Position numbers and translations under genes: made by a program. This document shows positions 3,390-5,344 of a DNA stretch of 15,423 nt, in pieces. This DNA comes from a virus (taxonomy: Duplodnaviria > Heunggongvirae > Uroviricota > Caudoviricetes): IMG/VR virus record IMGVR_UViG_2698536618_000026, positions 1-15,423 of that record, one strand, 5' to 3'. Numbering within the stretch: position 1 is the stretch's first letter; every line of letters begins with the position of its first letter. The notes below the pieces were generated by a model. The model was not told where the DNA came from. It was given only the letters and a program-made list of their open reading frames with translations, and searched no databases.

Positions 3390-3932
3390 TCACTCTCCTT
3401 TGATGCGAATGCCAGCAACGCGTAATGCGTGTTCTAGGTCAATCAGGTAAAGCCAACTGCCATTTTCTTTAGGTATCATGACATGTCGCTCATCTGCATT
3501 TATCGGGTGTCCATATCGAAGGTTGTAGCGAGTCGGTAATTGAACTTCCCGCGCTTCCAGTTCAGCAATACGCTTGCTCCCATCAGAGATAACTCCCTCG
3601 TAATACGCACGCTGCTCGTTGAGTTTTGATTTTGCTTCCTCAAGCTCAACACGCAGCTTCCCTACCGTTAGCGCAATCTCCTCGTTCTCCTGGTCACGGC
3701 GTTTTATGTATTGCTGGTTTCTTTCCCGTTCATCCAGCAGTGCCAAAGCAACCTTTGGATTAAAGACAGCAATAAATTCAGCGTTGTTTTTCAGAACGTG
3801 TTGCGCAATGGCCTGACTACTTAGTCGGACCTCATAATCACGTGCGCCACGGTGTGGTTTATATGAGTCCCAGTCTCCCCACGTTGCTTTCTCTGCCGCT
3901 TCACGCAGTGCCTGATAGTTAATCTCGTTCAT
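3390..3932 (-). CDS. Ead/Ea22-like family protein
   Basis: Track ORF 3390..3956 begins with TTG; the in-frame ATG at 3932 gives MNEINYQALREAAEKATWGDWDS..., the typical Ea22-like N-terminus, followed by a coiled-coil-like middle. Its stop lies 1 nt from the downstream gene's ATG. Confidence 0.6.
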   Translation of the reverse strand: MNEINYQALREAAEKATWGDWDSYKPHRGARDYEVRLSSQAIAQHVLKNNAEFIAVFNPKVALALLDERERNQQYIKRRDQENEEIALTVGKLRVELEEAKSKLNEQRAYYEGVISDGSKRIAELEAREVQLPTRYNLRYGHPINADERHVMIPKENGSWLYLIDLEHALRVAGIRIKGE

Positions 3933-4203
3933 TTTTCTCTTCACTCCGGTATACAAGAATTACAACGTCACCTCTGCTAATTACGCGAGATGGATCCCCT
4001 GGTTCCATGCCGTCAATTCCGAAGGCGTCGAAAAATGCATCCATTGCCTTCTGGCGTTGATCCTGCTTACGGCGTTTATTCCATTTTTTCAGGAATACAG
4101 TTGTGACCCATCGTCCGGCGCAGAACATGATGTAAAAATAACCAATGAGTGCCAGGCCGATGTTCAGAACCGTATTTATCGTTATTTGTGCATCATTTAC
4201 CAT
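3919..4203 (-). CDS. Small membrane protein (single predicted TM helix), hypothetical
   Basis: 94-aa ORF. Hydrophobic segment VLNIGLALIGYFYIMFCAGRWV followed by a basic stretch KKWNKRRKQDQRQK. Overlaps neighbours at both ends, consistent with operon packing. Confidence 0.5.
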   Translation of the reverse strand: MVNDAQITINTVLNIGLALIGYFYIMFCAGRWVTTVFLKKWNKRRKQDQRQKAMDAFFDAFGIDGMEPGDPSRVISRGDVVILVYRSEEKNERD

Positions 4204-4447
4204 CAGATTGCCTTGCCTGTTTCAGTAACTGGTTGAACATAACACTCAGGGGATTGCTGTATCCAAACGGCAGGTTGTTTACGCGGTACAGAATCATTTT
4301 GTTTTTTTCTCCAGTTCGTACAATTACCCCATTCCACAATAACCGTGATAATTTATTACTGATGGAAACAGCACTCTTCCCAAGAGCGAGGGATATATCT
4401 TCTCTACTGCAATCTGGATTTTCCTGGATATATTCGATAACAGCCAT
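4193..4447 (-). CDS. Winged-helix-like DNA-binding protein, hypothetical
   Basis: 84-aa ORF with GGGA SD 5 nt before the ATG at 4447. Helix-turn-helix-like segment SREDISLALGKSAVSISNKLSRL followed by a wing-like GVIVRTGEKNKMILYRV. Confidence 0.5.
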   Translation of the reverse strand: MAVIEYIQENPDCSREDISLALGKSAVSISNKLSRLLWNGVIVRTGEKNKMILYRVNNLPFGYSNPLSVMFNQLLKQARQSDGK

Positions 4448-4461
4448 GTGATCCCTTTTAG

Positions 4462-5040
4462 TTAATGTTGGTTTTCGGATTGCATGCTATGAGTATTCAT
4501 TTCGTTAATAATTTCATCCAGAAGGAGTTCAAGCCCTTCCCGACCCATATCTGAAAGAATGAAACCTTTATCAGGGCAAGTAGCGAGCATTTTCTGGTAA
4601 AGAAACAGCGCTCTACCCATTCCTTCTGCCTCGCCGTATTTTTGAATTAAATTCCATTCAATATACTGCTGTAAGGCAAAACGAATGGGGCCGGGATATA
4701 TCGTCATAACCCCATGCTTCCCGTTATATATTACGGCGCGATCTGTTGTTCCGTGTTCGTTTGGGATATCAATAGTGCCATTCTTGTTTTCTTCTTCGTT
4801 GATGAATGTCGTCACGTACAGCCAGCGCCACTGGGCTACCTTCATCTCAACAGGGAGTTTACCCAGTAATCCTGCATTGTCGGCTTGTGCTAGGCATTGA
4901 AGGATTTGCAACCCCTTCGCATTAGGATGATCGAATTCACCTGCATCCAGACGGCGGATTGCGTCGTGATAATCAATAGTCATACTGCCAGTTCGTATAC
5001 CTGTGGCTGTTGCTTCAGCTTGGAATTTATCGTATTGCAT
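4462..5040 (-). CDS. Hypothetical protein (192 aa), no recognisable motif
   Basis: Protein-like composition, ATG at 5040 with a GGAG upstream, flanked tightly by neighbours. I could not assign a family by eye. Confidence 0.55.
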   Translation of the reverse strand: MQYDKFQAEATATGIRTGSMTIDYHDAIRRLDAGEFDHPNAKGLQILQCLAQADNAGLLGKLPVEMKVAQWRWLYVTTFINEEENKNGTIDIPNEHGTTDRAVIYNGKHGVMTIYPGPIRFALQQYIEWNLIQKYGEAEGMGRALFLYQKMLATCPDKGFILSDMGREGLELLLDEIINEMNTHSMQSENQH

Positions 5041-5045
5041 GATAT

Positions 5046-5228
5046 TTACTCCTCATCTTCATCTGCTGGTGCAATAACGTCATATCCTGCCTTTTCTGCA
5101 ATAAGCAGGAATTTTGAAAGACTTCCTACAAGTTCATCGTCCTGAACATATCGAATGGATATTACTTTCCCGTTTTTTATGGTCAGCAATACTCTGGTTT
5201 GTTCGTGTTCTGCTGTTTTCTGATGCAT
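5046..5228 (-). CDS. Small hypothetical protein with acidic C-terminus (60 aa)
   Basis: ATG at 5228 preceded by GGGAGA 5 nt upstream. C-terminus is ...IAPADEDEE. The upstream microprotein's stop codons abut this start. Confidence 0.5.
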   Translation of the reverse strand: MHQKTAEHEQTRVLLTIKNGKVISIRYVQDDELVGSLSKFLLIAEKAGYDVIAPADEDEE

Positions 5229-5230
5229 TA

Positions 5231-5344
5231 TTATCTCCCGTATGCTTTACGCAGAAACAAGCAGGCAATATGCATGTAATTTTTACCGTGTTGTGCAATA
5301 AGACAGGCCGTTTTGTGTGATGCCTTATGTTTTATAAAAGTCAT
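5231..5344 (-). CDS. Hypothetical basic microprotein (37 aa, two Cys)
   Basis: Not in the ORF track. Hand translation gives MTFIKHKASHKTACLIAQHGKNYMHIACLFLRKAYGR. Strong GGAGG SD 7 nt upstream of the ATG at 5344; double TAA stop abutting the next gene's ATG. Confidence 0.35.
   Translation of the reverse strand: MTFIKHKASHKTACLIAQHGKNYMHIACLFLRKAYGR

Follow-up and report, generated by a model that had tools for sequence, protein, structure and literature searches.

Five small open reading frames (ORFs) occupy positions 3919-5344, minus strand, of a 15,423-nt stretch of prophage DNA (IMG/VR record IMGVR_UViG_2698536618_000026; hereafter the window). The explanation we favor, with a probability of roughly 0.6, is that this region is a mosaic of three independently assorting units in a phiP27/Shiga toxin (Stx)-type lambdoid prophage: a cassette composed of a leader hairpin and genes for 37-aa, 60-aa and 192-aa proteins; a gene encoding a wHTH (winged helix-turn-helix) protein; and a gene for a DUF4752 membrane protein, associated with an Ea22-like gene. 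The five genes themselves are a mosaic of ordinary, uncharacterised early accessory genes. Interest lies in the conserved cassette with its unannotated microprotein family and covarying leader hairpin, which do not by themselves amount to a new mechanism.

Composition of the five-gene stretch

The initial annotation described five coupled ORFs within an early-left operon. All of them are present, on the minus strand and tightly coupled, in the expected operon:

5231-5344, minus: 37-aa basic microprotein (isoelectric point 10.2), usually the first gene of the cassette
5046-5228, minus: 60-aa acidic protein, phrog_340
4462-5040, minus: 192-aa acidic protein (isoelectric point 5.1), phrog_1515
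4193-4447, minus: 84-aa basic winged-helix protein, MarR-like, phrog_1687
3919-4203, minus: 94-aa DUF4752 membrane protein
3390-3932, minus: Ea22-like gene (Pfam Ead_Ea22, E 6.7e-36), outside the five-gene stretch

The grouping of these genes into one unit is not supported by their distribution. Among 80 close loci, taken from IMG/VR and carrying a homologue at least 68% identical to the 192-aa protein, the 37-aa, 60-aa and 192-aa genes occur together in every one, while the wHTH and DUF4752 genes are both absent from 23. In some close loci the DUF4752 gene is lost or replaced while the wHTH gene stays. Megablast coverage breaks at ~4482, between the wHTH and 192-aa genes.

Distances between the genes were read from the sequence. 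The stop codon of the 37-aa ORF is separated by 2 nt from the ATG of the 60-aa ORF, whose own stop lies 5 nt from the 192-aa ATG. A spacer of 14 nt, containing an AAGGGA ribosome-binding site, follows between the 192-aa stop and the 84-aa ATG. The remaining junctions are overlaps, of 11 nt between the 84-aa and 94-aa genes and of 14 nt between the 94-aa gene and the Ea22 ATG (3932). At the upstream end, GGAGG (5356-5352) is located 7 nt before the 37-aa ATG.

Comparison with homologous loci by the Nei-Gojobori method indicates that all five genes are under purifying selection. The ORFs are more than chance ones. Their ratios of nonsynonymous to synonymous rates (dN/dS) are 0.27-0.40 for the DUF4752 gene, 0.11-0.21 for the wHTH gene, 0.07-0.20 for the 192-aa gene and 0.0-0.27 for the 37-aa gene (including comparisons with six synonymous and no non-synonymous differences, and with 15 and 10, respectively). 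For the 60-aa gene the ratio is 0.17 at depth and 0.5-1.3 among close relatives, where it is based on just 2-4 synonymous changes.

The cluster had also been called unassigned and devoid of any recognisable recombination function. The first description has to be given up for the 94-aa protein, which belongs to Pfam DUF4752. None of the products matches a known recombination, structural or housekeeping protein. Searches of Pfam, PHROGs, NCBIfam, PADLOC and PDB sequences, together with fold searches, matched no recombination function in the cluster, and no confident homology to structural or housekeeping phage proteins was found. PADLOC defense profiles gave no match for four of the proteins and only generic wHTH matches for the fifth, to the C-terminal domains of CARF3/CasR with E values no better than 2.6e-5. 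When all families were searched against PDB by sequence and profile, nothing above chance level emerged.

The conserved cassette

We compared about 250 related loci (254). They were collected through similarity to the 192-aa protein, so the association frequencies that follow are conditional on its presence. In 240 of the 254 loci, hidden Markov models (HMMs) built here detect a 37-aa-type ORF upstream of the 192-aa gene. When lineages are defined at 90% identity, 24 of 29 carry the 37-aa gene and 18 of 29 have a phrog_340 gene between it and the 192-aa gene. Wherever all three are present, their order is 37-aa, 60-aa, 192-aa without exception. Even where protein identity is down to 41-57%, as in phi467, Klebsiella phage KPP5665-2 and phage CharmingMan, the order persists; distant homologues of the 192-aa protein were traced in these three phages and in ~170 further viral contigs. 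The cassette is widespread in temperate phages of Escherichia, Klebsiella and their relatives. DNA of the trio is found in 342 of 5426 complete E. coli genomes (~6%), in which the Prokaryotic Genome Annotation Pipeline (PGAP) annotates only two coding sequences at this place.

The window holds the most compact form of the cassette. In the expanded form, the order is hairpin, 37-aa gene, phrog_1737, phrog_340, phrog_1525, phrog_1886, phrog_1515 and a gene of Ant/Rha/ORF6N type. None of the inserted families has an assigned function. In phrog_1737, the C-terminal half looks like the 192-aa protein's C-terminal domain. Phage 705R4 carries the phrog_340 gene alone.

Of 31 distinct close variants, 30 have an intact 37-aa ORF, and the start codon swaps between ATG and GTG. 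The HMM recovered 71 distinct peptides of 32-38 aa with the consensus M[TS]FI.D..AY[KR]TA.L.A..G...IA.L[YF]L[RK]KAYG[RKV] and invariant residues A13, G20, L29, A34, Y35 and G36. Part of the conservation of the C-terminus, L[YF]L[RK]KAYG[RKV], may reflect a dual constraint, the last codons carrying the ribosome-binding site of the next gene. The two cysteines, cited in the initial annotation as a cue for an inhibitor, both vary across the family and lose this significance. The exact sequence from the window, as well as other members tested, each occur on up to at least 1000 contigs of E. coli, Klebsiella or Enterobacter. Database entries invariably call the peptides "hypothetical" and give no RefSeq WP accession; PGAP does not call the gene, DFAST annotated it in an Stx1 phage record, and Pfam, PHROGs, NCBIfam, PADLOC and PDB hold no match to the family. 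We conclude that this predicted gene represents a real and widespread microprotein family missed by standard annotation.

The 60-aa protein (charge -5) matches phrog_340 over residues 2-59 (E 7.1e-20; E 5e-33 for a Klebsiella homologue). Its core consists of a beta-hairpin and a helix, followed by a variable, disordered tail, which reads PADEDEE here. The acidic tail had been taken for another mark of an inhibitor; it turned out to be specific to this lineage. Copies of the phiP27 type end in AKEQTL, those of Citrobacter and Enterobacter in GEKDNGPDSDTNS-like tails and the 705R4 copy in PPDA, and some family members have no tail at all. In close relatives, whose copies share more than 85% identity, the tail reads DEDEE, DEDEDEE, DEDEDEDEE or DEEEDEDEDEE. 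This length polymorphism (5046-5065, minus) looks like slippage in a GAT/GAA repeat. Together with the variable tail length, the near equality of dN and dS in close relatives would be compatible with an interaction surface under conflict.

The 192-aa protein (charge -9) aligns along residues 1-190 with positions 12-200 of the 203 in phrog_1515, a family annotated "unknown function" (E 1.1e-90). Among 1.84 billion proteins there are 125 representatives of the family at 50% identity, nearly all of them 190-220 aa long and stand-alone. A scan of genome contigs with the single 192-aa protein gave no match. Among the near-invariant residues are L31, G34, D37, R72, W73, F79, Y105, R120, E128, Y148 and G166, and also histidine as the final residue, in a conserved C-terminal ...P..H tail. 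A confident structure model predicts an alpha/beta fold, for which no match was found in PDB or in a viral structure library. Six of eight Klebsiella phage records (L095 4001-4579 and seven others) label the homologue "2-polyprenylphenol hydrolase / flavodoxin oxidoreductase". We reject this label, as a Pfam scan of 50 family members gave no match and hence no support in any of them; it is probably a propagated annotation error.

The leader hairpin

Just outside the coordinates of the five genes lies a further conserved part of the cassette:

5361-5403, minus: leader element at the 5' edge of the cassette, composed of an A/U-rich stretch, a hairpin, GGGGA (5381-5377) and a CA[AC]CC-like motif

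The hairpin has a stem of 4 bp (arms 5395-5392 and 5385-5382) and a loop at 5391-5386. RNAalifold predicts the four pairs on 31 diverse sequences. The helix is 99.2% paired, compared with 34-59% in slid controls. Compensatory changes affect three of the four pairs (30 cells), a level reached by none of 500 shuffles; the stem variants include CGGC/GCCG, CACC/GGUG, CGCC/GGCG, CAGG/CCUG, CAGA/UCUG and CAGC/GCUG. Imperfect cells comprise nine G.U, no A.C and one C.U, and trace to some five or six independent events. The nine G.U cells compared with no A.C favor an RNA of the sense strand as the form in which the element would be read.

A covariance model has a single match in the whole window (5361-5403, 46.7 bits, E 4e-10) and none in the right operon, which the window covers as far as the Q gene. 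Among 80 diverse loci it finds 40 matches, one per locus and each on the sense strand. The element is located 10-20 nt upstream of the ribosome-binding site of the first ORF, whichever ORF that is; usually it is the microprotein, sometimes another one. When the window sequence alone is folded, the hairpin forms together with an anti-Shine-Dalgarno/Shine-Dalgarno pairing (-16.6 kcal/mol, z -2.27). Rfam searches of positions 3300-7400, both strands, gave no match at E up to 1. We propose that the hairpin would act in the mRNA and set the translation or stability of the first cistron.

ORFs inserted between the leader element and the microprotein were observed in three loci. A 91-aa ORF is fused in frame to the microprotein (L162 2323-2709), a 219-aa ORF precedes the microprotein gene in another locus (L201 2031-2690), and a third insertion encodes 129 aa with a GDSMxPT-type S24 peptidase-like motif (L233 2117-2512).

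The same palindrome of 4 bp, with half-site centers 10 bp apart, could equally be a DNA operator, which is an objection to a role in mRNA. The element would then be a 14-bp palindromic operator/promoter bound by a phage-specific HTH dimer, and the cassette would be regulated separately and possibly expressed in the lysogen. The spacing of half-sites and the constant total length of 14 nt fit this, and the half-sites vary between phage lineages, as those of operators do. Genes of HTH regulators are situated directly upstream, and an A/T-rich stretch precedes the element. However, no sigma-70-like promoter is found at 5345-5426, all nine imperfect but pairable cells are G.U on the sense strand with no A.C, and the distance from the element to the first ribosome-binding site is fixed whatever ORF comes next. 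On balance we regard the operator as the less probable form, though a fair rival, and prefer the hairpin in mRNA.

Three further candidates for this element were rejected. A second helix after the hairpin (GGG with CCC) is 67.7% paired and lacks covariation. A switch with alternative pairing of the 3' arm and CA[AC]CC is at odds with the motif staying constant while the stem changes, as judged by inspection. Promoters for sigma-70, sigma-54, sigma-32 or sigma-E have inconsistent spacing by eye, and a consensus scan finds none.

The wHTH and DUF4752 proteins

The 84-aa protein matches phrog_1687 ("MarR family", E 1e-24), aligned to positions 69-154 of 162. Its scores against Pfam wHTH families stay below the cut-offs (HTH_24, 19.7 bits with a cut-off of 21.9; MarR_2, 15.9 with a cut-off of 27), and it is too short for the MarR dimerisation domain, typical MarR proteins having ~140-150 aa. 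The fold is probably wHTH, but neither length nor Pfam bears out membership of MarR proper.

The 94-aa protein is a member of Pfam DUF4752 (E 6.5e-40, 135.5 bits with a cut-off of 27, profile positions 1-84 of 84), and PGAP names it so as well. It possesses one N-terminal membrane helix at about residues 12-30 (19-residue Kyte-Doolittle maximum of 1.86 at residue 12), followed by a KKWNKRRK stretch. Its gene is translationally coupled to Ea22. DUF4752 directly precedes an Ea22-like gene in Shigella phage POCJ13, without the other cluster genes, and has been found in 141 phage records, among them those of P22-like, Stx and Klebsiella phages. Because of this adjacency and spread, we place DUF4752 in the Ea22/exo-xis accessory module, studied in lambda and phi24B (PMC7093339, PMC8614690). 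No mention of DUF4752 was found in the searched full-text literature.

It had been speculated that the membrane protein and the wHTH protein form a sensor/effector pair. The distribution of the genes argues against it: DUF4752 pairs with Ea22 in classic Stx phages that have no wHTH gene, and wHTH homologues (at ~42% identity) sit in unrelated phages such as those resembling P88.

The Ea22-like gene at 3390-3932 (minus) is marked by PGAP as "incomplete, missing C-terminus", yet its frame runs open through 180 codons. An Ea22 N-domain seems to be combined here with a C-terminal part of another kind.

Genomic setting

The prophage is lambdoid and occupies the mlrA site of E. coli. Gene order and consensus matches suggest that the five ORFs sit in a PL-type, repressor-controlled leftward early operon, with the following features around them:

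75-1361, minus: int
1395-1649, minus: xis
6407-6379, minus, pointing leftward: promoter-like site TTGACA-17-TAATAT directly downstream of the cI terminator (10 of 12 matches in a consensus scan)
6459-6443, minus: terminator-like hairpin 3' of the repressor gene
6471-7166, minus: gene of a LexA/CI-type (cI-like) repressor

A run of small minus-strand genes spans the interval from xis to the repressor. The site at 6407-6379 is, judged by its consensus match, the probable equivalent of PL driving the entire leftward operon, and a terminator scan found no minus-strand terminator-like sites across the five-gene cluster. Replication genes (9746-12958) and then a Q-family antiterminator follow on the plus strand. 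The annotated record of the phage contains no exo, bet or gam genes; the label "exo-xis" is positional only.

Other genes of the window deserve a brief mention. Between the cassette and the promoter-like site (5427-6325, minus), a 147-aa HTH protein combines an N-terminal phrog_4587-like domain with an HTH. The next two genes, encoding a 71-aa HTH protein and a 66-aa protein, resemble its two domains, split and in swapped order; ASU11 has two HTH copies in one 237-aa protein. A 181-aa ORF at 2873-3418 (minus; phrog_9263/631) contains a PD...E-x-K-like nuclease motif, QPDAMGF...CLIEAKC; it is open here, and in a 99.9% identical genome PGAP marks part of it as a frameshifted pseudogene. A 97-aa ORF at 7637-7930 (minus) lies on the opposite strand between cro-like and Rha-family genes. 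PGAP calls it "hypothetical", Pfam gives no match, and the ORF might be a moron.

Possible functions of the cassette

In the scenario we favor, the products would be delayed-early, dispensable accessory proteins which bind host or competitor proteins rather than catalyse reactions or bind DNA. The acidic 192-aa protein would be the main effector, with the 37-aa and 60-aa proteins as its frequent partners. Action through protein binding is our best guess, because the trio lacks catalytic and nucleic-acid-binding signatures (no match to such enzyme or DNA-binding families by sequence or fold) and two of its proteins are acidic. A bolder proposal, which we consider unlikely, is that the hairpin, the 37-aa gene, phrog_340 and phrog_1515 represent an undescribed module acting jointly on a host target, for example in counter-defense or host takeover. 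If true, a structured mRNA leader controlling a microprotein missed by annotation pipelines would be combined with proteins of a fold lacking known relatives, in ~6% of complete E. coli genomes and many Stx prophages among them.

Several points weigh against the favored scenario. The trio is a frequent association and not an obligate complex, because members of the 192-aa family are also present where the 37-aa and 60-aa genes are missing, next to primase genes in elements resembling P4 or phage-inducible chromosomal islands and in one phage group. Co-linearity could come from shared ancestry of the operon type instead of shared function. The elevated dN/dS of the 60-aa gene depends on the few synonymous changes given above. 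Finally, neither homology nor experiment assigns a function to any of the five proteins.

More specific roles can be imagined. Firstly, the trio proteins might inhibit host nucleases, restriction or abortive-infection systems early in infection, which is the original idea about this region narrowed to the trio. The position, in a stretch with much gene turnover, is equivalent to that of lambda gam/ral, the products are small, acidic, early and otherwise unassigned, and the 60-aa protein evolves fast among close relatives, with its acidic tail varying. On the other hand, no similarity to any characterised inhibitor in PDB was found, nor any sequence or fold similarity to anti-restriction and DNA-mimic proteins (Ocr, ArdA, Gam-type), and the acidic tail is no trait of the family. 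Fairly strong purifying selection on the trio and a gene order kept over deep divergence are more like a backbone function than an arms race. Two published accessory-gene screens do not list the trio; its peptide strings are absent from their supplements and from the searched full-text papers. Counter-defense seems to us an improbable role.

Secondly, the trio and its neighbors might tune the lysis-lysogeny decision or induction, as do ea22 and orf60a/61/63 of the lambda exo-xis region, or communicate with the repressors and anti-repressors that co-resident prophages and satellites encode. Directly adjoining the cluster is Ea22, reported to be pro-lysogenic (PMC7093339). Homologues of the 192-aa protein are located directly beside Ant/Rha/ORF6N-type genes in four phage groups and also occur in AlpA-AntA-ASH islands, and the 60-aa protein shows weak similarity to anti-repressor PHROGs 4792 and 2379 in their C-terminal part (E 1.5e-4 and 6e-4). 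These matches, however, cover only ~45 residues, the 60-aa HMM does not match the neighboring Ant or ORF6N proteins, and no sequence relation to lambda orf60a/61/63 exists, with no lambda record among the tblastn matches. We treat modulation of lysogeny as a tentative possibility.

Thirdly, the 192-aa protein might help to start or protect replication of the element. Homologues lacking the 37-aa and 60-aa genes directly precede Zn-ribbon/Toprim primase-helicase genes, in the same operon, in three loci (L083 4001-4642; L088 and L089 5001-5627), which are int-AlpA-AntA-DUF4222-ASH islands resembling P4 or phage-inducible chromosomal islands. In lambda, moreover, exo, bet and gam take the same operon position. 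Yet in lambdoid phages the gene belongs to the left operon, far from the replication genes (9746-12958), and the acidic protein shows neither a motif for nucleic-acid binding or nuclease activity nor any fold match. We consider such a role very improbable and return to dispensable accessory proteins that would act by binding other proteins.

Regardless of which function applies, the cluster resides in Stx-type prophages. In such phages, accessory genes of the early-left region are known to influence induction and lysogeny, and through them the release of toxin. The region is best cloned as three units, not as one five-gene block. Screens built on annotated ORFs overlook the 32-38-aa gene, which is missing from RefSeq annotation, Pfam, PHROGs and NCBIfam, and the covarying leader element offers a concrete, testable regulatory handle for the cassette.

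Comparison with known systems

The 60-aa and 192-aa genes call to mind type II toxin-antitoxin pairs: they are 5 nt apart, with the smaller one upstream, and a strand/helix core with flexible tail is reminiscent of antitoxins. In other phages, however, the two genes are 500-2000 nt apart with other genes between them and each occurs alone, and neither protein matches any toxin or antitoxin family. We reject this interpretation since the genes can come apart and occur alone.

The leader resembles lambda N/nutL insofar as a short conserved hairpin lies directly upstream of a gene for a small basic protein in a leftward early operon. It differs in that inspection by eye shows no boxA-like sequence beside the hairpin, the 6-nt loop does not resemble GNRA, the 37-aa protein has no arginine-rich motif, the rightward operon has no second copy of the hairpin and the first ORF is not always the microprotein. 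A nut-like function is rejected on account of the single covariance-model match in the window.

The cluster as a whole resembles the lambda exo-xis or "ea" region (ea22, ea8.5, orf60a, orf61, orf63, orf73) and the ea genes of P22. There too, small, coupled and dispensable early-left genes are placed between the immunity region and xis-int and are mosaic among lambdoid phages. The Ea22-like gene is an immediate neighbor here, and DUF4752 is found in the ea regions of Stx and P22-like phages. The trio, by contrast, has no detectable relation to lambda exo-xis genes, with no lambda match in tblastn or in PDB, where structures of Ea22, Orf63 and Ea8.5 are available.

The nearest named counterparts of the cassette are L06/L07/L08 of phiP27 and gp51-gp53 of ASU11, all annotated "unknown". 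In phiP27, L07 ends in AKEQTL and has no acidic tail, and the next gene encodes a putative serine protease, neither wHTH nor DUF4752. The cassette itself can be recognized: L06 is the homologue of the 192-aa protein (67% identity), L07 that of the 60-aa protein (47%), and an unannotated 37-aa ORF together with the leader hairpin lies between L08 and L07.

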